Shown here: positions 57,412 to 64,000 of the stretch, one piece after another | How the letters are laid out: every line of letters begins with the position of its first letter | How positions within the stretch are numbered: the stretch's first letter is position 1 | Assembly (NCBI GenBank): GCA_030841965.1 | Contig: JAUUSJ010000004.1 | Span: 3,006-67,005 of the forward strand | DNA length: 64,000 nt | Source of the DNA: Blautia sp. | GTDB lineage: Bacteria > Bacillota > Clostridia > Lachnospirales > Lachnospiraceae | Direction of reading: 5' to 3' | Notes under the pieces: model-generated | The model's database searches: none | The model's input: only the letters and a program-made list of their open reading frames with translations | What the model was told of the DNA's origin: nothing | Translations under genes and position numbers: made by a program

Positions 57412-58650
57412 ATGAATGTAGAGCTTATTTCTGTTGGAACAGAGTTTTTGATTGGTAAGTCAATTAATACAAATACATTTTATTTGGCGGAGCGTCTTTC
57501 TTCACTTGGATATCAGGTGAATGAGCAGATTGTAGTGGGAGATGAGATTAGTCAGATTCAGCGAGCTCTAAAGGGTTCTATCGAGCGCTCCGATATTGTT
57601 TTTGTCATGGGTGGTCTTGGTGCGATGAAAGACGATGTCACGAAAAAGGCAGTTGTCGAGGCTCTAGATATTCCACTTGTAGAAAATCCAATAGTAAAAA
57701 ATCAGATTAAAAATCGATTTGAGGATATATCGAAAGTTTCTCAAAATATTTGGAGACAGGCGATGACTCCAAAGGGAGCAGTACTTTTAGAGAATAAGCA
57801 AGATATTATCCCTGGTTTTATTATATCTTTTGAGGGAAAAAAGATTATCTTGCTTCCAGGAAATCCAAAACAGTTAAAACAGATAGTGGACCAAAAAGTA
57901 ATGCTCTATCTAAAGGATTGGCAGCCTAGCATTATCTGCTCTGAGATTATAAAAATTATGGGAGTGACCGAACAAGATGTCATGGAGAAGCTTGGGAACT
58001 TGATGGAGAGTGAGAACCCTAAAATTACAACCTACTCTCACACGGGGGAAGTTCATCTTCGTATTATCGCTAAGACCGATTCAAAGAAAGACGGGAAAAA
58101 GCTTGTCGCTCCGATTTTGGAGGAGATAAAAAACTGTTTTGGAAATCTAGTCTACTCGACAAAGGAAGAGGAGACACTTGAGGAGAATGTCGTATCTCTC
58201 TTAAAGAAATATAATATTACTGTATCTACGGCTGAGTCTTGTACCGGCGGATGTCTGGCAGGAAGGCTTGTAAATATATCTGGTGTATCCAATGTCTTTG
58301 GACAGGGCTTCATTACTTACTCGAATAAGGCGAAGAAAAAACTAATCGGAGTAAGCAAAAATACATTGAAAAAGCACGGCGCTGTATCCAAACAGACTGC
58401 GAAGGAGATGGCAGAGGGAGTCTCTGTCACGACAGGTTCCGATGTGGGAATCGGTATTACAGGCATTGCAGGTCCGGAGGGCGGCACAGACGAGAAGCCA
58501 GTGGGTCTTGTCTATATTGGATGCTATGTGAAAGAGAAGGCAATTGCGAGAGAGTATCATTTTGTTGGAGATAGAAACGATATCAGAGAACAGTCTGTTA
58601 TGGCGGCACTCGCACTTCTTAGGACAACGATTTTGGATAATTATAAATAG
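57412..58650 (+). CDS. cinA: Competence/damage-inducible protein CinA (MoCF-binding domain plus PncC-type NMN deamidase domain)
   Basis: MNVELISVGTE...N-terminal CinA pattern and C-terminal TAESCTGG. Confidence 0.92.
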   Translation: MNVELISVGTEFLIGKSINTNTFYLAERLSSLGYQVNEQIVVGDEISQIQRALKGSIERSDIVFVMGGLGAMKDDVTKKAVVEALDIPLVENPIVKNQIKNRFEDISKVSQNIWRQAMTPKGAVLLENKQDIIPGFIISFEGKKIILLPGNPKQLKQIVDQKVMLYLKDWQPSIICSEIIKIMGVTEQDVMEKLGNLMESENPKITTYSHTGEVHLRIIAKTDSKKDGKKLVAPILEEIKNCFGNLVYSTKEEETLEENVVSLLKKYNITVSTAESCTGGCLAGRLVNISGVSNVFGQGFITYSNKAKKKLIGVSKNTLKKHGAVSKQTAKEMAEGVSVTTGSDVGIGITGIAGPEGGTDEKPVGLVYIGCYVKEKAIAREYHFVGDRNDIREQSVMAALALLRTTILDNYK

Positions 58651-58659
58651 GTTTAAAAG

Positions 58660-58700
58660 AGTCATTATCTTCGAGAATAAGAAGATAGTGACTTTTTTTA
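58660..58700 (+). terminator. Intrinsic terminator of cinA, and the last clearly chromosomal feature
   Basis: 13-bp hairpin AGTCATTATCTTC/GAAGATAGTGACT followed by TTTTTTT. Confidence 0.85.
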
Positions 58701-58885
58701 TGAAATTATACTAGGGTCAAAAGGTTGGAAATTCGATACAAGCTTGTTTGTGAGAATATTTAGAAAATAGACATAGAATTATAAACATTTTTTCAAGAAA
58801 CCGCATGAACACTTGATTTCAGAGCTTAAAAAATCTAAAAATCAAAGATTTTACGACAGATTTACGACAAAATTTTCAAAAACAT

Positions 58886-58939
58886 AAAAAGACAGGGTGG
58901 AAAGTCCAAAATATAGATTCTCTATCCCTGTCTTTTTTG
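58886..58939. terminator. Bidirectional terminator (serves the minus-strand DUF1492 gene)
   Basis: GACAGGG ... CCCTGTC closes a branched loop, with AAAAA on the left and TTTTTT on the right. Confidence 0.6.
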
Positions 58940-59025
58940 TTTGCTATTTCATATATGTCAGCAAAGGCATGTTCCCATTTTGGGAATCTGCTATATCAAT
59001 TATTTGCTATCTAACATTTGCTCGG

Positions 59026-59445
59026 TCAAGATGCATCCCTATTTTGGGACTCCATTATGTTTGCTCGGTCAAGTACTTTTTGAAATTCTTTTAGGGCTTG
59101 TTTATGCAAAGCAATGGTATAGTGGCAACAATATCCTATTTCACTCCCTATCATCTCATAAGCCTTATGTTCTATGTATCGCTTATAGAGGATAGCAGAG
59201 AGCCTTTTGTCTGGCATCTTTTTGAGCTGGTCTATCACTTCTAATTTTAGTTTTCCAGTCTCTTCTATCTCTTCATCTATCTTTCTCTCTTTTTCCTTTA
59301 TGCGCTCGGATAAGGTATCAAGAGCTTTTCCAGTGCCACCAGAGGTATTATGTAGTATCTCTTCTAGGTATTCCTTGCAGGCTGTTAGGTTGTGGATGGT
59401 GGCGTCTTTACTTTTTACTTGCTGTAAATATTCTTTGGCTGTCAC
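59026..59445 (-). CDS. DUF1492-like phage transcriptional regulator (sigma-70 region-4-like HTH)
   Basis: GTG start 8 nt after AGGAGGG. The N-terminus MTAKEYLQQ and C-terminal LYKRYIEHKAYEMIGSEIGYCCHYTIALHKQALKEF match the phage DUF1492 / late-activator pattern as I remember it. Confidence 0.7.
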   Translation of the reverse strand: MTAKEYLQQVKSKDATIHNLTACKEYLEEILHNTSGGTGKALDTLSERIKEKERKIDEEIEETGKLKLEVIDQLKKMPDKRLSAILYKRYIEHKAYEMIGSEIGYCCHYTIALHKQALKEFQKVLDRANIMESQNRDAS

Positions 59446-59551
59446 GGCTTTTACCCTCCTAGATATGGTTTTGTTTGGAGATTAGTATACATGATTTTGG
59501 GAGTGTTGGGAACAGCCTTATTTGAAACTTGTATGACATCCTTTCTTTTAA

Positions 59552-59586
59552 CGAACTGGTATTCACAACACTAGTTCGATTTTTTA
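59552..59586 (+). terminator. Intrinsic terminator (repeat family T, copy 1)
   Basis: CGAACTGG/CTAGTTCG hairpin followed by ATTTTTT. It is homologous to 61039-61069. Confidence 0.5.
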
Positions 59587-59912
59587 GTTTCTTGTGAAAT
59601 ACTAAGTTTTACTAACCTCTAGTTTTTCAATTTCTTCAATTTCTTCTCAAATGTTGGATTTTGTAAGGTTCTCACATCCCTATTCTCAAGTACCGAAATG
59701 GTAGCAGGACAAAAAGAAGAGGAAGAGGACAAGGGGGTAACGAATTGTTATCGAGTTTGGGACAGCTAAGTTTCTGCTGCCAAATTAAGATATCTGTAGA
59801 GTTCTGTATAAGCTTTATATTTGCTCTTATTTGGCTTTTAGGTGGTGAATGGAGTATTCCAGCCGTTACAAGAAAAAGCAATCTAAAGGCAAATTTAGGG
59901 TGTCTGAGAACA

Positions 59913-59954
59913 ACAAAAAAGAGTACCAAAACAGGGGGATAACGTTTGGTACTC
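59913..59954 (-). terminator. Intrinsic terminator on the minus strand
   Basis: Read on the minus strand: GAGTACCAAAC ... GTTTTGGTACTC followed by TTTTTTGTTGTT. Confidence 0.6.
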
Positions 59955-60177
59955 TAATGATATATTGACATATGGGGAAGTGTTGAATCACTTTCTTTAT
60001 TATCTCACATTTGTTTGGAAAAAGCAAGGAAAAATGAACACCAGTTCTTTAAAAATATGCTATTCTATCATTTCAAGTGTACTAAATATGTCAAAATGTG
60101 ACATGTTTATGCCATATGAAATAATGCTCTATGGTGAATGGTACGGAATGATAAAGAATGATAAAGCATTTTCCCTC

Positions 60178-60206
60178 TTGCAATACTTGGCTTAATGTGC
60201 TATAGT
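60178..60206 (+). promoter_or_regulatory. Promoter of antisense RNA 1
   Basis: TTGCAA, a 17-nt spacer ending CTTAATGTGC, and TATAGT. It is nearly identical to the promoter at 60563-60591. Confidence 0.6.
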
Positions 60207-60212
60207 AGGGGT

Positions 60213-60360
60213 ATAAAAATAACCGCCGCTATGTGGTAGATAGTGACGGTTAAAGGAAAACCAGAAGATAGATGAAGCCTATCCGCTCTGGTATTAAGTT
60301 AACAGTTACAAAATGCAAGCTGCCTACTCGAGCCAAGAGACAAGGCGGCTTGCTTATTTT
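60213..60360 (+). ncRNA. Candidate antitoxin sRNA 1 (SR4-like), convergent with toxin 1
   Basis: It runs from the promoter above to the hairpin GCAAGCTGCC...GGCGGCTTGC plus TTATTTT (60315-60360), which overlaps the toxin-1 stop codon. A 5' hairpin at 60222-60250 carries the conserved loop ATGTGGTAG. Confidence 0.4.
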
Positions 60361-60431
60361 CTATAATTCAAAATTGCTACAATGAGCAAAGCTACGCTCA
60401 CAATTAAGCTTAACTCTTCGTATGTAGTCAT
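60354..60431 (-). CDS. Candidate type I toxin peptide, BsrG / Hol-Tox-like (25 aa)
   Basis: MTTYEELSLIVSVALLIVAILNYRK. It has a purine-rich SD (AAAGGGTGAGG) and its own promoter, and it is a single hydrophobic helix with a basic tail. It is below the size cutoff of the ORF track. Confidence 0.55.
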   Translation of the reverse strand: MTTYEELSLIVSVALLIVAILNYRK

Positions 60432-60494
60432 AAGCCTCACCCTTTCTACGGAATAGAACGGATGACTGCACGCCTTTCTGATTTTCCTGTGTAA

Positions 60495-60523
60495 AGTATA
60501 GCATAATGAAACTCTATGAGCAA
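60495..60523 (-). promoter_or_regulatory. Promoter of the toxin-1 mRNA
   Basis: Minus strand: TTGCTC, a 17-nt spacer, and TATACT. This gives a leader of about 57 nt. Confidence 0.55.
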
Positions 60524-60562
60524 CCATAAAACATGATAAAGTATCATGAGTGAATTTTTTGG

Positions 60563-60591
60563 TTGCAATATTTATCTTAATGTGCTATATT
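60563..60591 (+). promoter_or_regulatory. Promoter of antisense RNA 2
   Basis: TTGCAA, a 17-nt spacer ending CTTAATGTGC, and TATATT. Confidence 0.6.
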
Positions 60592-60597
60592 AAAGAC

Positions 60598-60697
60598 AGA
60601 AAAAGGGAAAGCCAAAGCGACTTACCCTTATAAATAATAAGTGACTATTTTTTTATATAGTCGCCATTATGTGGTAGTGATGGCGACTACTTTTTCC
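60598..60697 (+). ncRNA. Candidate antitoxin sRNA 2 (SR4-like), convergent with toxin 2
   Basis: It has a 5' hairpin GGGAAAG...CTTACCC. Its 3' terminator hairpin TAGTCGCCATTA/TGATGGCGACTA (loop contains ATGTGGTAG) plus CTTTTT overlaps the toxin-2 stop codon. Confidence 0.45.
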
Positions 60698-60776
60698 CCT
60701 TGAATATCTGATAACACAGACCTACAAGGGAAATAAGAACTATGGTAAATTCAAACAAATCTGAATATGTAACCAT
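60687..60776 (-). CDS. Candidate type I toxin peptide, BsrG / Hol-Tox-like (29 aa)
   Basis: MVTYSDLFEFTIVLISLVGLCYQIFKGKK. AGGAGGGG lies 7 nt upstream of the ATG, and the structured ~85-nt leader contains an anti-SD. Confidence 0.6.
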   Translation of the reverse strand: MVTYSDLFEFTIVLISLVGLCYQIFKGKK

Positions 60777-60868
60777 AAGAACCCCTCCTTTCGTAAGATT
60801 GGAGGGATTTTTCTTTCTCCCTCCGTAAAAAGAGGGCAAGTCGCCTTGGCTTGGCTTTCCCAAATACC

Positions 60869-60877
60869 ATTATACCA
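60869..60877 (-). promoter_or_regulatory. Extended -10 promoter of the toxin-2 mRNA
   Basis: Minus strand TGgTATAAT. The -35 is weak (CTGAAA). Confidence 0.5.
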
Positions 60878-61038
60878 CAAGTTTTCACTAGTTTCAGCTT
60901 ATTTTTCAATACGCAAAATATTCCCTATTTTCTTTGTATATCGCCGTGAATGAGTGTACTAACACAAGAATCTACGCAATATTTTACTTGTTTTGGTAGC
61001 AGAAGACAAAAAAACTGTATAACAACGAACACTTTAAC

Positions 61039-61069
61039 GAACTGGTATTCGGAACATCAGTTCTTTTTG
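61039..61069 (+). terminator. Intrinsic terminator (repeat family T, copy 2)
   Basis: GAACTGGT/ATCAGTTC hairpin followed by TTTTT. The flank CTTTAACGAACTGGTATTC is shared with copy 1. Confidence 0.5.
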
Positions 61070-61461
61070 CGTTCTTAAATTTTTCATTTTCTTGAAAACC
61101 ATAACATTTGATAACAAATCTAGTATTTTCTAGTAGTTTTCATTTGGCAGCAGGAGAAATAATTTTTTCTGAAACTGAGGTTTTCTGAGGTTTTTAAGTT
61201 CTTGCGCTGGCGCAATCTTGAGTATTCTTGAGTGAAGAAAAAGGGTATGCGCATTATTCACCCCCTTACTAATTTCCTCTGAAACTGGAGTATTCTGGAG
61301 CAATACAGCCGTTACAGATAAAAAGTTATATTTTCTCATTTTATCATCCGAAAAAATCTCATTTTTCTACTTTTTGCGAAAAATACCAGCCCCTCAACAG
61401 TTCCCCATTGATTCCGTTTATTGATAAGGTGGGGGGAGTAGTGTTCCCTGCTGCCATTTAG

Positions 61462-61497
61462 ACAAAAAAGAAAAGCCCTCTAAGCAAATAGAGGACT
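61462..61497 (-). terminator. Intrinsic terminator on the minus strand
   Basis: Minus strand: AGTCCTCT ... AGAGGGCT followed by TTTCTTTTTTG. Confidence 0.55.
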
Positions 61498-61563
61498 CTT
61501 CATGGTAGAAAAATATTATTTGAAAATCGCAAAAGAAAAAAAGACGAAAAAATTTTCATCTTG

Positions 61564-61592
61564 ATAATACCATATGGAAAAGGAATTTGCAA
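61564..61592 (-). promoter_or_regulatory. Minus-strand promoter driving a ~90-nt transcript
   Basis: Minus strand TTGCAA, a 17-nt spacer, and TGgTATTAT. The terminator at 61462-61497 lies downstream. Confidence 0.45.
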
Positions 61593-61671
61593 TATTTTCC
61601 TTGTTTTTATCTTATATAGCCGTGGATGAGGGTACAAAGAAAAGAAAAAGCGCAAAATTTTCCTTATTTTC

Positions 61672-61700
61672 TTGCAAAACTTAGGAAAATATGATATAGT
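61672..61700 (+). promoter_or_regulatory. Promoter of orphan sRNA 3
   Basis: TTGCAA, a 17-nt spacer, and TATAGT. Confidence 0.55.
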
Positions 61701-61706
61701 GATGAA

Positions 61707-61778
61707 GATAAAAGATACGATTTCCAAATCAAAAAGAGAGCTAACAACTTGTATTGGTTGTGTAGGCTCTCTTTTTTG
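61707..61778 (+). ncRNA. Candidate ~70-nt sRNA (promoter plus terminator, no ORF)
   Basis: The transcript ends in hairpin AGAGAGC...ACAAC/GGTTGT...GCTCTCT followed by TTTTTTG. It has no start codon with an SD. Confidence 0.35.
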
Positions 61779-62008
61779 TGTGTAATATTAAATAGTTACT
61801 AAGTTCACAGTACTTTTATGCCTGTGTTAAATTTTCATTTTTGCCTTTCATTAAGGCTTTTCATTTGCTAGTAGTTTATATATTTACTACCCTAAAAAGC
61901 GAAAACAAATTTTAATGTATGTATGTATTTGGTAAGCCAAATTCACTTTTACAATATTTTTATCTTGGATAATATAAAATTATGTTCATTTATTGTCGTT
62001 TTTTTTAA

Positions 62009-62037
62009 TTGCAAAAGTAGGCTTGTTATGATATACT
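62009..62037 (+). promoter_or_regulatory. Promoter of the 31-codon ORF
   Basis: TTGCAA, a 17-nt spacer, and TATACT. Confidence 0.55.
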
Positions 62038-62066
62038 CTATAAAAATTGAATAAGGAGGTAATACT

Positions 62067-62162
62067 ATGATAGATTATAAAAAAAGTATAATCAAACTGC
62101 TTGATAGATTGAATGAAACGCAGTTAAAAAGATTTTATAAGCTTCTAAAATCTTCATTGTAG
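62067..62162 (+). CDS. 31-aa helical mini-protein of unknown function
   Basis: MIDYKKSIIKLLDRLNETQLKRFYKLLKSSL. AAGGAGG lies 7 nt upstream, and it has a dedicated promoter and terminator. It is below the ORF-track cutoff. Confidence 0.45.
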   Translation: MIDYKKSIIKLLDRLNETQLKRFYKLLKSSL

Positions 62163-62182
62163 CACTTACATAAATTAGTGCA

Positions 62183-62218
62183 AAACCGTTACTGTTGCCG
62201 CAGTAGCGGTTTTTTTTG
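62183..62218 (+). terminator. Intrinsic terminator
   Basis: 11-bp hairpin AACCGTTACTG/CAGTAGCGGTT followed by TTTTTTT. Confidence 0.75.
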
Positions 62219-62250
62219 TTTGGTGTATATATCCTTATTATTATAAAAGT

Positions 62251-62280
62251 TTATCATTATTTATCATTGCTTATCGCTTT
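62251..62280. repeat. Three helically phased 10-bp direct repeats (TTATCATTAT / TTATCATTGC / TTATCGCTTT)
   Basis: Read directly from the sequence. Related ATCAT words occur at 62286 and 62302. Confidence 0.6.
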
Positions 62281-62425
62281 TCACAATCATAACAAATAAA
62301 TATCATTTTGTCTAGTCATAAAATATATAAAATATTGCTAATGTTTAGTGAAAAAAGTGTTGTTATAGTGACATATAGCGAAAAAAATATTAAACATATG
62401 GAAAATATTTATATTATCTTTAATT

Positions 62426-62770
62426 TTAGTTCAGCAATAAATCTAGTGCTTTCCATTGTTCCAGTGTTAAATTTGATAATTTTTGGAGCACTCTTTTCTG
62501 TGGTGTGTTTTCTTCTTTCATTGCATAACTAACTAACAAAATCAATTTGTCATCATCCGATAGTTTAGTGAACATTTCACCTTCACCAGTCCGAAGCCAC
62601 ATTTCATTTACATTAAACTCTTTGCACATTAAAATTAAAGTAGATTCGCTAGGAGTTATTTTCCCAACTTCATATGATGCTATAGTTTGACGTTTTACTC
62701 TTAGCCTATCTGCAAAATTTTGTTGCGTTAATCCTAATTCTTTTCTTAGTTGTTTTATTCTCTTATTCAT
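62426..62770 (-). CDS. XRE-family (Cro/CI-type) HTH repressor
   Basis: The start at MNKRIKQLRKELGLTQQNFADRLRVKRQTIASYEVGK has GAAAGGTGGTG upstream. The hydrophobic N-terminal extension in the track ORF runs through the promoter region. Confidence 0.85.
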   Translation of the reverse strand: MNKRIKQLRKELGLTQQNFADRLRVKRQTIASYEVGKITPSESTLILMCKEFNVNEMWLRTGEGEMFTKLSDDDKLILLVSYAMKEENTPQKRVLQKLSNLTLEQWKALDLLLN

Positions 62771-62792
62771 TAATTCACCACCTTTCAATATT

Positions 62793-62860
62793 ATGCTAAC
62801 AAAAAAAAGCAATTTAGTCAACAAAAAACTATTGACAAAAGCAATTAAAATGCTTATAAT
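62793..62860. promoter_or_regulatory. Divergent switch region: rightward consensus promoter, leftward promoter, and repeated operator-like words
   Basis: Rightward: TTGACA (62832-37), 17 nt, TATAAT (62855-60). Leftward: TTGACT, 17 nt, TAGCAT. AAAGCAATT is repeated at 62806 and 62838, 32 bp apart. Confidence 0.6.
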
Positions 62861-62910
62861 AGCAATATAATCAACAACAAACAATGACAACATAGAAAGG
62901 AAAATAAATA

Positions 62911-63111
62911 ATGCGAAAGAGTTTAATAACAAAAGTAAATCCTAATAATACAGTACTGATTACATATTCACAGGCAATAGAAAGGTATAACTTAGGCAGG
63001 AATAAAGTTTATGACCTTGCAAAAGAAGCAGATGCAATCATTAAGATTGGCAAGTCTGCAAGAATTGATATGAAGAAAATGGACGAATTCGTTTTGTCCT
63101 TTAAGGGGTGA
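62911..63111 (+). CDS. Excisionase-family / MerR-like HTH DNA-binding protein
   Basis: 66 aa. ITYSQAIERYNLGRNKVYDLAKEADAIIKIGKSARI fits the HTH_17 excisionase-type pattern. Confidence 0.7.
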   Translation: MRKSLITKVNPNNTVLITYSQAIERYNLGRNKVYDLAKEADAIIKIGKSARIDMKKMDEFVLSFKG

Positions 63112-64000
63112 TGGCTGTGACATATGATGAAGTGTTAGCGAGATTTCAAGATGTGAAAAGAAGAGGAGACACGGCAAAAGCCAAATGCCCTTGTCATGCG
63201 GATGAGAAAGCATCTCTTTCTATCACAAAAGAAAACAATAAAATATTGCTTCATTGCCACGCTGGTTGTGAAACTGCTGCCATTGTGGAAGCGGTAGGGC
63301 TTTCCATGCAAGACTTATATTCAGAGCCATTACAGACATCCAAGCCTGCATGGGTGAGACATGTAGAAAGGGTTAAAAATTCCACTCTTGAAGCTAGATA
63401 TGACTACATAGATAGTAAGGGCGAATATAGCTACTCGAAACTTCGCTTTCGTGGGAAATTACTTTGCTATGGTACATATGACTTTACAGCTGAAAGAATG
63501 TATTTAAGAGCCACAAAAAAGAAAGCAGACACGCTTTATTTTGGTAATGGCTCAGTAAAAAGTCTAAAACAGGCGATTGAGGAAGGAAAGACAATTTATA
63601 TTACAGAGGGGGAAAAAGATACCCTCTCATGTCAAAAGAACGGCTTAATTGCTGTCACATACGGAGGGGCTTCAGATTGGAAAAGAGAAAAAGCAATATT
63701 TTTTACAGATGCCATTGTAGTAATTCTAAGAGACAACGACACAGCAGGCAAGGAAACGGCATTAAAGATTTACAAGGATTTAAAAGACGTAACCAAAAAA
63801 ATCAGTATCAAGAATCCTATGCCAACCAAAGCAAAGGGGGATATTTCAGATTTCTTTGCTGAGGGTGGAACCGTTGATAAGTTGGAATTTCTTCCAGAAG
63901 AAGAACAACCAAAAGAGGAGATAGAAAAAGCTTTACTATTGGAGAGATTCCATAGAATGAATGATAGAACAGGAAAACCAATAGAAATCATAGACATGTA
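63111..64000 (+). CDS. Phage/plasmid-type DNA primase (CHC2 zinc finger plus TOPRIM), 3'-truncated by the window end
   Basis: This ORF is not in the track because it is open at the window end. The ATG overlaps the upstream stop (TGATG). Translation: MAVTYDEVLARF...CPCHADEKASLSI...LLHCHAGC (CHC2), IYITEGEKD and RDNDTAGKE (TOPRIM E and DxD). Confidence 0.8.
   Translation, partial: MAVTYDEVLARFQDVKRRGDTAKAKCPCHADEKASLSITKENNKILLHCHAGCETAAIVEAVGLSMQDLYSEPLQTSKPAWVRHVERVKNSTLEARYDYIDSKGEYSYSKLRFRGKLLCYGTYDFTAERMYLRATKKKADTLYFGNGSVKSLKQAIEEGKTIYITEGEKDTLSCQKNGLIAVTYGGASDWKREKAIFFTDAIVVILRDNDTAGKETALKIYKDLKDVTKKISIKNPMPTKAKGDISDFFAEGGTVDKLEFLPEEEQPKEEIEKALLLERFHRMNDRTGKPIEIIDM

Follow-up and report, generated by a model that had tools for sequence, protein, structure and literature searches.

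In a 64,000-nucleotide (nt) stretch of a Blautia sp. genome (GenBank assembly GCA_030841965.1, contig JAUUSJ010000004.1, positions 3,006 to 67,005; hereafter the window) we located two short minus-strand open reading frames (ORFs), each facing a predicted antisense RNA. Judged from the sequence, they are best explained as two neighbouring type I toxin-antitoxin modules of the TxpA/BsrG (Hol_Tox) family, each transcribed on its own and both residing on a phage-like element, a reading to which we assign a probability of roughly 0.85. An earlier note on this DNA had likened the pair to bsrG/SR4. This interpretation was supported: each of its elements was found in both units and was kept in their relatives, and the arrangement matched the probed structure of bsrG mRNA (PMC3834814) as well as a control fold of it.

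Candidate toxins of the Hol_Tox family

Both ORFs were read from the sequence and the ORF list. The first (toxin-1, 25 amino acids, MTTYEELSLIVSVALLIVAILNYRK) runs from 60431 to 60354 and the second (toxin-2, 29 amino acids, MVTYSDLFEFTIVLISLVGLCYQIFKGKK) from 60776 to 60687, both on the minus strand, and each forms the 3' portion of a longer listed ORF (57/58 amino acids). Their start codons are spaced by 345 nt, and each ATG is preceded at 5-8 nt by a Shine-Dalgarno (SD) sequence, AGAAAGGGTGAGG in toxin-1 and AAAGGAGGGG in toxin-2. Both reading frames and their SD sequences were thus where the earlier note had placed them. The common architecture that it had described was likewise confirmed, with a hydrophobic helix between a head of the form M-x-T-Y-x-(E/D)-L, more precisely M-x-T-Y-(E/S)-(E/D)-L, and a basic tail: M1, T3, Y4 and L7 are invariant in an alignment across both subfamilies, and the C-terminal tails read YRK and KGKK.

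A Pfam scan returned PF16935 (Hol_Tox) as the sole meaningful match of either peptide. The gathering cut-off of this model is 23.3 bits, and the controls BsrG (matching an ORF of phage SPBc2, i.e. SPbeta, at 100% identity) and TxpA scored 34.5 and 31.3 bits, respectively. The proposed membership in the Hol_Tox/BsrG family was substantiated through close relatives of both peptides, which pass the model just as BsrG and TxpA do. P0004, 79% identical to peptide 2, reached 25.7 bits, the relative P0180 29.7 bits and the consensus of the peptide-1 family 23.2 bits. Of 50 relatives drawn from the profile matches described below, 45 matched at E<=0.001, and the relatives P0015, P0016 and P0028 carry a precomputed PF16935 match. 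By transitivity via these close relatives, the sequence comparison argues that each peptide is homologous to the PF16935 family. Peptide 1 also matched phrog_9488 (E=1.5e-5), and its relatives follow the pattern MSTYEELSLIVSVALLIVAILN[YL][TK][HN]KK.

Protein relatives were sought with the two peptides concatenated as query. A profile of both subfamilies retrieved 655 cluster representatives (50% identity) at E<=0.001 among 1.84 billion. The top match of this profile was P0176 (E=2.2e-36), in which 15 separate stretches of its 1765 amino acids were matched; it is presumably not a relative but a hydrophobic protein of repetitive sequence. Of the two exact peptides, the one of 29 amino acids was present in the protein collection, where it stems from a gene call made on an NCBI contig; the one of 25 amino acids was not found there.

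Predicted promoters, RNAs and terminators

In line with the earlier note, each toxin ORF appeared to have its own promoter, with leaders of ~57 and ~86 nt. A scan for consensus promoters detected the toxin-2 promoter CTGAAA-17-TGnTATAAT at 60897-60869 on the minus strand (inferred start ~60862), at a position that is kept in relatives. The toxin-1 promoter TTGCTC-17-TGnTATACT (60523-60495, minus strand; inferred start ~60488) was read by eye, with the -35 element at 60523-60518 and a TGn-extended -10 element at 60500-60495 that aligns in position with the -10 TATAAT of related modules. It was not reported by the consensus scanner because its -35 element matches at only 3/6 positions. From its inferred start and terminator, the toxin-1 mRNA is predicted to span 60213..60488 (~276 nt, minus strand) and to end at a hairpin at 60221..60251 (ΔG -13.8 kcal/mol, z score -3.85) with the loop CUACCAC, followed by AUUUUUAU (60220-60213). 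The predicted toxin-2 mRNA (60598..60862, minus strand, ~265 nt) would end at the 3' strand of a helix joining its 5' and 3' regions plus a terminal UUUUU (60604-60600).

On the plus strand, the same scan revealed the promoters TTGCAA-17-TGnTATAGT (60178..60206) and TTGCAA-17-TGnTATATT (60563..60591), which share 87% identity over 30 nt and would drive one small RNA (sRNA) against each toxin. The first predicted antitoxin, sRNA-1 (60213..60362, ~150 nt, fold z score -5.09), is delimited by promoter and terminator and is fully complementary to the toxin-1 3' untranslated region (UTR) and last codons. Its terminator is a branched hairpin (60315-60353, plus strand; ΔG -23.2 kcal/mol, z score -4.2) followed by UUAUUUUCU, while the toxin-1 terminator hairpin at 60221-60251 reads on the plus strand as the 5' hairpin of sRNA-1 with the loop GUGGUAG. 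The second, sRNA-2 (60598..60698, ~100 nt, fold z score -3.63), was delimited in the same way; its complementarity covers the entire toxin-2 3' UTR and, within it, the 3' strand of the 5'-3' helix. The terminator scan placed its end at 60658..60695 on the plus strand, where a hairpin (60658-60689, loop GUGGUA; ΔG -19.6 kcal/mol, z score -5.9) is followed by CUUUUU. This terminator overlaps the stop and lysine codons of toxin-2 and corresponds on the minus strand to a post-stop hairpin with the loop UACCAC.

Most of the transcript layout proposed in the earlier note was therefore recovered. The sRNA terminator hairpins abut both toxin stop codons, and at the sequence level the promoter and terminator coordinates make both predicted sRNAs antisense to the toxin 3' UTRs. 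The near-identical TTGCAA promoters held as well; the distance of 150-190 nt given for them did not apply to module 2, where the promoter lies 96-124 nt from the stop codon. Of the toxin mRNA terminators that the note had placed on the sRNA start sites, a separate hairpin was seen for module 1 and not for module 2.

The C-terminal lysine codons of the toxin (AAA/AAG; window 60687-60698) template the U-tract of the antisense terminator; one and the same stretch of bases thus specifies both the basic tail and the sRNA terminator. The same templating by lysine codons is seen in SPbeta bsrG/SR4 (L083:545-567).

Conservation in related modules

Relatives of module 2 were collected as 30 metagenome loci by a degenerate DNA pattern, plus L001-L004, which together yielded 26 unique modules; for module 1, 30 unique modules came from exact-protein look-ups and 21 IMG/VR viral contigs. 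More than 50 independent loci show the complete layout, which is thus not a product of chance, and module 1 of the window aligns end to end with its relatives. Of the 24 complete module-2-type loci, 22 have a sigma-70 promoter on the antisense strand, in most cases with a TGn extension, whose end is 78-95 nt away from the stop codon. This set includes a GC-rich subgroup with perfect TTGACA/TATAAT elements, and the position of the promoter stays fixed while the sequence diverges across three subfamilies. Module-1-type loci carry TTGACA-16/17-TGnTATAAT at the equivalent antisense site. A predicted convergent antisense RNA gene overlapping the toxin 3' UTR, the hallmark of the bsrG/SR4 type, was hence found in both families.

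Disruption of the mini-ORFs in otherwise conserved copies, which the earlier note had named as evidence that would count against its proposal, was looked for in the module-2 family. The ORF was intact in 25/26 modules, the exception being L049 with a TAG at codon 9. Variable sites were distributed over the three codon positions as 15/5/20, and the ratio of non-synonymous to synonymous polymorphism (pN/pS) was 0.36; judged by this codon pattern, the toxin ORF is under purifying selection. The SD sequence, at the correct spacing, was invariant in the alignment. We also considered that the mini-ORFs might be untranslated and that the conserved feature might be a pair of convergent structured RNAs with another role. 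Strong conservation of the RNA structure would suit such non-coding loci, as would L049, in which (toxin at 1194) all RNA features are kept despite the early stop. Variation that follows codon position, the invariant SD and the near-complete integrity of the ORFs argue for translation, however, and the peptides are homologous to BsrG and TxpA, both of which are experimentally toxic (PMC2887945, PMC3834814). We therefore regard purely non-coding loci as extremely unlikely.

Some relatives depart from the common layout or extend it. L038 and L044 have kept the ORF and the SD; their flanks are unrelated, and both the 5'-3' helix and the antisense promoter are missing from them. Four loci (L020, L022, L024 and L025) hold tandem pairs of different module-1-type toxins, MSTYEELQLIVSIALLIVAILTYTHRK then MSTYEELSLIVSVALLIVAILNYTHKK, with start codons 353-355 nt apart, which resembles the 345 nt in the window. 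Two samples that hold the cinA contig of the window (ERZ28640479 and SRR24622432) also hold a complete P0004 module (L001:2030-2560, L002:1-420) between a lactate permease and an acetyltransferase gene, so that the organism probably carries at least three module copies. The ENA contig breaks inside module 1. A blastn search with 59900-61200 against plasmid and phage collections gave no match, and tblastn of the two peptides against phages returned nothing or only insignificant Streptococcus matches. The pattern of the shared antisense promoter matched 0 viral contigs, and among genome contigs it retrieved one unrelated Acutalibacteraceae promoter.

Folding and covariation of the toxin mRNAs

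Both predicted toxin mRNAs folded into closed structures, far more stable than those of shuffled sequences, in which the 5' region pairs with the 3' region and the SD is sequestered. For toxin-1 the minimum free energy was -90.4 kcal/mol (z score -5.05). Its 5' strand (60488-60471) pairs with a 3' strand at ~60267-60253, an anti-SD/SD hairpin forms at 60465-60438, and a post-stop hairpin precedes the terminator. The toxin-2 mRNA gave -106.8 kcal/mol (z score -9.5), with a helix between 60861-60834 and 60630-60605 in the 3' UTR, an anti-SD/SD hairpin at ~60808-60783 and a post-stop hairpin. The closed structure was recovered by RNAalifold on 15 module-2-type and 17 module-1-type sequences. In the module-2-type alignment (A4) 95.5% of the cells were paired, and 15 pairs had changed on both sides versus 5.4+-1.5 in shuffles that ignore kinship among the sequences; 0/500 shuffles reached 15, and slid controls gave 2-6. 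The module-1-type alignment (A5) behaved likewise, with pairing in 96.0% of cells and two-sided changes in 18 pairs versus 8.9+-1.5 in shuffles of the same kind (0/500 reached 18; slid controls 2-7). An mRNA closed by a 5'-3' helix (P1 in bsrG) with a double-stranded SD, the second hallmark of the bsrG/SR4 type, is thus predicted by the modelled folds.

The mismatch pattern allowed us to assign the helices to strands. In the long 5'-3' helix, read on the toxin strand, G.U cells outnumbered C.A cells by 40:12 and 47:4 in the two alignments, indicating that this helix is selected on the toxin strand. The post-stop hairpin showed the opposite bias, with G.U versus C.A cells of 0:16 in the module-2 family and 1:8 in the other. 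C.A mismatches on the toxin strand become G.U pairs on the other, so that this hairpin pairs better in the antisense RNA, and the U-run that follows it occurs on the antisense strand only.

These data also bear on the idea that regulation is exerted in cis alone, through folding or processing of the mRNA, and that no functional antisense RNA exists, the promoter-like sites being a by-product of AT-rich sequence. Closure of the mRNA by the 5'-3' fold, together with the SD hairpin, could indeed suffice to silence translation, as in full-length hok mRNA, and this AT-rich stretch abounds in promoter-like hexamers (28 versus 18.4 expected). The antisense promoter, by contrast, has kept its position despite divergence in three subfamilies, GC-rich relatives with consensus hexamers among them, and both the U-run and the pairing bias of the post-stop hairpin point to the antisense strand. 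On balance, we consider control in cis alone unlikely and favour modules with a functional antisense RNA.

Comparison with characterised systems

For bsrG, structure probing has shown that nt 1-35 of the mRNA pair with nt 232-262 (P1), that the SD lies in a 4-bp helix, that the stop codon is located in the 5' part of stem-loop SL3 and that the terminator SL4 directly follows P1 (PMC3834814, Jahn & Brantl 2013). Our control fold of SPbeta bsrG mRNA yielded P1, the SD hairpin, SL3 and SL4, and its topology was the same as that of window module 1. The modules of the window share with bsrG/SR4 the Pfam family, a head of the form M-x-(T/V)-Y-E-x-L, a single hydrophobic helix and a lysine-rich tail. 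They also share a mRNA of ~270-296 nt whose 5' ~30 nt pair with the 3' UTR, an SD hairpin, a hairpin directly after the stop codon and, in module 1, a terminator directly after P1. On the antisense side, the sRNA terminator abuts the toxin stop codon and draws its U-tract from lysine codons, as in SR4, whose promoter in SPbeta reads TTGCAA-18-TATAAT; the sRNA promoters of the window have a TTGCAA -35 element too. Both systems are located on a prophage or phage-like element, in the case of bsrG the B. subtilis prophage SPbeta. The systems differ in that the window peptides are shorter (25 and 29 versus 38 amino acids), as are the predicted sRNAs (~100-150 nt versus 183). The sRNAs start at the 3' end of the toxin mRNA and would hence be devoid of the ~50-nt non-complementary 5' part of SR4. 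Module 2, moreover, has no counterpart of the separate terminator hairpin SL4. No similarity could be detected at the nucleotide level, the host belongs to Clostridia (Lachnospiraceae) and not to Bacillus, and the modules of the window are predicted from sequence.

The same toxin family includes txpA/RatA of the B. subtilis skin element and EF3263/RatA-like of Enterococcus faecalis. In the TxpA family an antisense RNA (~110 nt in E. faecalis) overlaps the 3' end of the toxin (PMC2887945). TxpA differs from the window peptides in its length of 59 amino acids with a long C-terminal extension, and RatA comprises 222 nt. TxpA-like sequences in Clostridiales have been noted in silico (PMC2887945), and C. 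bolteae was named in a later review; in the literature searched we found no characterised Lachnospiraceae member of the TxpA family. Another group of clostridial type I modules, CD0977.1-RCd11 and others of Clostridioides difficile, resembles the present pair in that they are located on prophages, often several per element, and they have been proposed to stabilise mobile elements. Their toxins, of 34-59 amino acids, reportedly do not resemble TxpA/BsrG in sequence and represent a different toxin family (PMC7699646, PMC6563280).

A shared loop motif

The motif ATGTGGTAG occurs three times in the window versus 0.16 expected, and the flanks of the shared copies are identical at 17/21 positions. 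In the hairpins that contain it, only GUGGUAG or GUGGUA is exposed in the loop, with AU in the stem. The earlier note had described this as a hairpin common to both units and as a plausible kissing-loop initiation site. The shared hairpin is real; its position in the two units is not equivalent, since it forms the toxin terminator and sRNA 5' hairpin in module 1 (60221-60251) and the sRNA terminator in module 2 (60658-60689). A kissing-loop start fits module 2, in which the terminator loop of the sRNA lies opposite the post-stop loop of the mRNA, as loop L4 of SR4 does to loop L3 of bsrG; module 1 does not fit in the same way. Module-2 relatives mostly have other loop sequences, and the ATGTGGTAG motif is thus not a conserved feature of the family. 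The terminator loop of bsrG, CUACCAA (L083:656-680), resembles the window loops CUACCAC and UACCAC, which may be coincidence.

The 10-nt UAUGUGGUAG is carried by a hairpin of each predicted sRNA, at the 5' end in sRNA-1 and as the terminator in sRNA-2, and is complementary to a loop in the toxin mRNA of the other module. On this complementarity, sRNA-1 could kiss the post-stop loop of toxin-2 and sRNA-2 the terminator loop of toxin-1. Two heterologous modules might then be wired together and not merely adjacent, a notion that we put forward very tentatively and consider doubtful; if true, it would imply cross-repression or a hierarchy between two different toxins. A duplex-energy test of the cross-pairing between sRNAs and toxin mRNAs did not discriminate, as full-length inputs gave huge loops. 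Module 1 looks chimeric, combining a module-1-type toxin and 5'-3' helix with a module-2-type 3' hairpin and antisense promoter.

Genomic setting

Up to cinA (57412-58650) the window is chromosomal and includes mutS, mutL, genes for penicillin-binding proteins, ftsK, fhs and folD. The encoded FTHFS shares 98% identity with a protein from a 'MAG: Lachnospiraceae bacterium' and 80% with Agathobacter and Lachnobacterium sequences. In two related Lachnospiraceae metagenome-assembled genomes cinA is followed directly by recA-recX-rny, and homology to the window stops right after cinA, indicating that the modules lie in an insertion. This phage-like insertion between cinA and recA (58660..64000, with its right end beyond the window) encloses both modules. 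Pfam and PHROGs searches assigned to it a helix-turn-helix repressor gene on the minus strand (62426-62773) and two genes on the plus strand, one excisionase-like (DUF6462, 62911-63111) and one for a Toprim primase (63117 onward). Approximately 3.7 kb of the insertion are almost gene-free, and tblastn detected no integrase remnant between the toxins and cinA. Relatives of module 1 are located between a CI-like repressor and a tyrosine integrase, both in small integrative elements and on viral contigs, a setting that corresponds to the lysogeny modules of temperate phages. Other copies (L001 and L003) lie away from any phage genes.

The phage context raises the question whether the peptides could serve the inserted element as holins or in the timing of lysis, in which case the convergent promoters would be incidental. 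The nomenclature leans that way: the Pfam family is named 'putative holin-like toxin', as are P0015 and the peptide-1 relative WP_442870253.1 (NCBI 'putative holin-like toxin [Blautia sp.]'), and others in Caudoviricetes metagenome-assembled genomes bear the same name. There are also weak matches to the 'holin' family phrog_3488 (E=0.038 for peptide 2, E=0.002 for a relative), and module-1 relatives are found on the 21 viral contigs. Members of the TxpA family, however, are sometimes annotated as holin-like toxins, and such annotations have already been equated with this family (Fozo et al. 2010, PMC2887945). The position of the genes in a lysogeny module with no adjoining endolysin, and the copies remote from phage genes, are hard to reconcile with a role in lysis. 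The same holds for the individual promoter, sequestered SD and closed mRNA of each gene and for the conservation of the antisense promoter and of a terminator biased towards the antisense strand. We thus deem a holin function very unlikely and retain the assignment as type I toxins.

Elsewhere in the insertion we noted further small units and repeats. A larger duplication was sought in 58.6-62.4 kb, and only short repeats were found: a plus-strand terminator-like hairpin (AACGAACTGGTATTC...) is repeated at 59547-59584 and 61033-61068 (84% over 38 nt), and further pairs lie at 59850-59878/61296-61325 and 61160-61187/61270-61297. Between 61462 and 61785 there are two more sRNA-like units with a TTGCAA -35 element, one on the plus strand (promoter TTGCAA-17-TGnTATAGT at 61672-61700, hairpin at 61722-61785) and one on the minus strand (promoter at 61592-61564, strong terminator at 61501-61470); no hydrophobic mini-ORF was evident opposite either unit. 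A further promoter (TTGCAA-17-TATACT, 62009-62037) precedes a strong SD, a 31-amino-acid non-hydrophobic ORF (62067-62162, MIDYKKSIIKLLDRLNETQLKRFYKLLKSSL) without a PHROGs match and a 14-bp terminator (62182-62213). A minus-strand ORF of 139 amino acids (59026-59445) had no Pfam match; it matched phrog_36 'transcriptional regulator' from profile position 54 on (E=1.7e-11) and may represent an N-terminally truncated regulator.

Discussion

Several observations weigh against the assignment of the two units as TxpA/BsrG-type modules. Both peptides scored below the PF16935 cut-off, with 21.1 bits (E=2.9e-4) for peptide 1 and 15.6 bits (E=0.015) for peptide 2; their scores are limited by their shortness, as only 23-31 of the 34 profile positions are covered. 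NCBIfam and PADLOC searches gave no match, and an Rfam scan of the whole window at gathering thresholds gave 0 matches. The toxin-1 promoter has a weak -35 element, and transcription starts and RNA ends were derived from consensus motifs only. Finally, the disregard of kinship qualifies the shuffle comparison, a weakness from which the slid controls and the pair-count measure are free. A local Rfam scan listed rli28 (27.7 bits versus a threshold of 45) and fstAT (17.4 versus 72) below threshold. A match to the plant microRNA family MIR169_2 (E=1.8e-5) was rejected, as it merely picks up the long 5'-3' helix.

The bsrG/SR4 system suggests how the modules might operate. In that system the loop L4 of the SR4 terminator makes the first contact with loop L3 of bsrG; binding of SR4 releases the 5' 33 nt of bsrG and lengthens the SD helix to 8 bp, and RNase III then degrades the duplex (PMC3834814). 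By analogy, the closed toxin mRNA would be poorly translated. The sRNA would first contact the loop of the post-stop hairpin through its terminator loop, and the duplex would then spread through the 3' UTR and displace the 5' strand of the long helix. RNase III could cut the resulting duplex of 100-150 bp, while the freed 5' region would let the anti-SD helix tighten, so that translation is blocked. Should the supply of sRNA stop upon loss of the element or under stress, the more stable mRNA would be translated and the peptide would arrest or kill the cell. The outcome might be that the mobile element is stabilised or that infection is aborted.

On Firmicutes prophages, modules of this kind would come as no surprise to a specialist, and the pair opens no new question. 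Annotation pipelines could be extended by the antisense RNAs, for which there is no Rfam model, and by ORFs of 25-29 amino acids. The modules mark the boundaries of lysogeny modules and integrative elements in gut metagenomes, and their relatives offer a natural set of covarying variants, in both the 5'-3' helix and the recognition hairpin, for tests of an SR4-type mechanism. As far as can be judged from these loci, uncultured Lachnospiraceae of the gut, and the temperate phages of these bacteria, appear to have kept nearly every element of the TxpA/BsrG architecture that was worked out in Bacillus.

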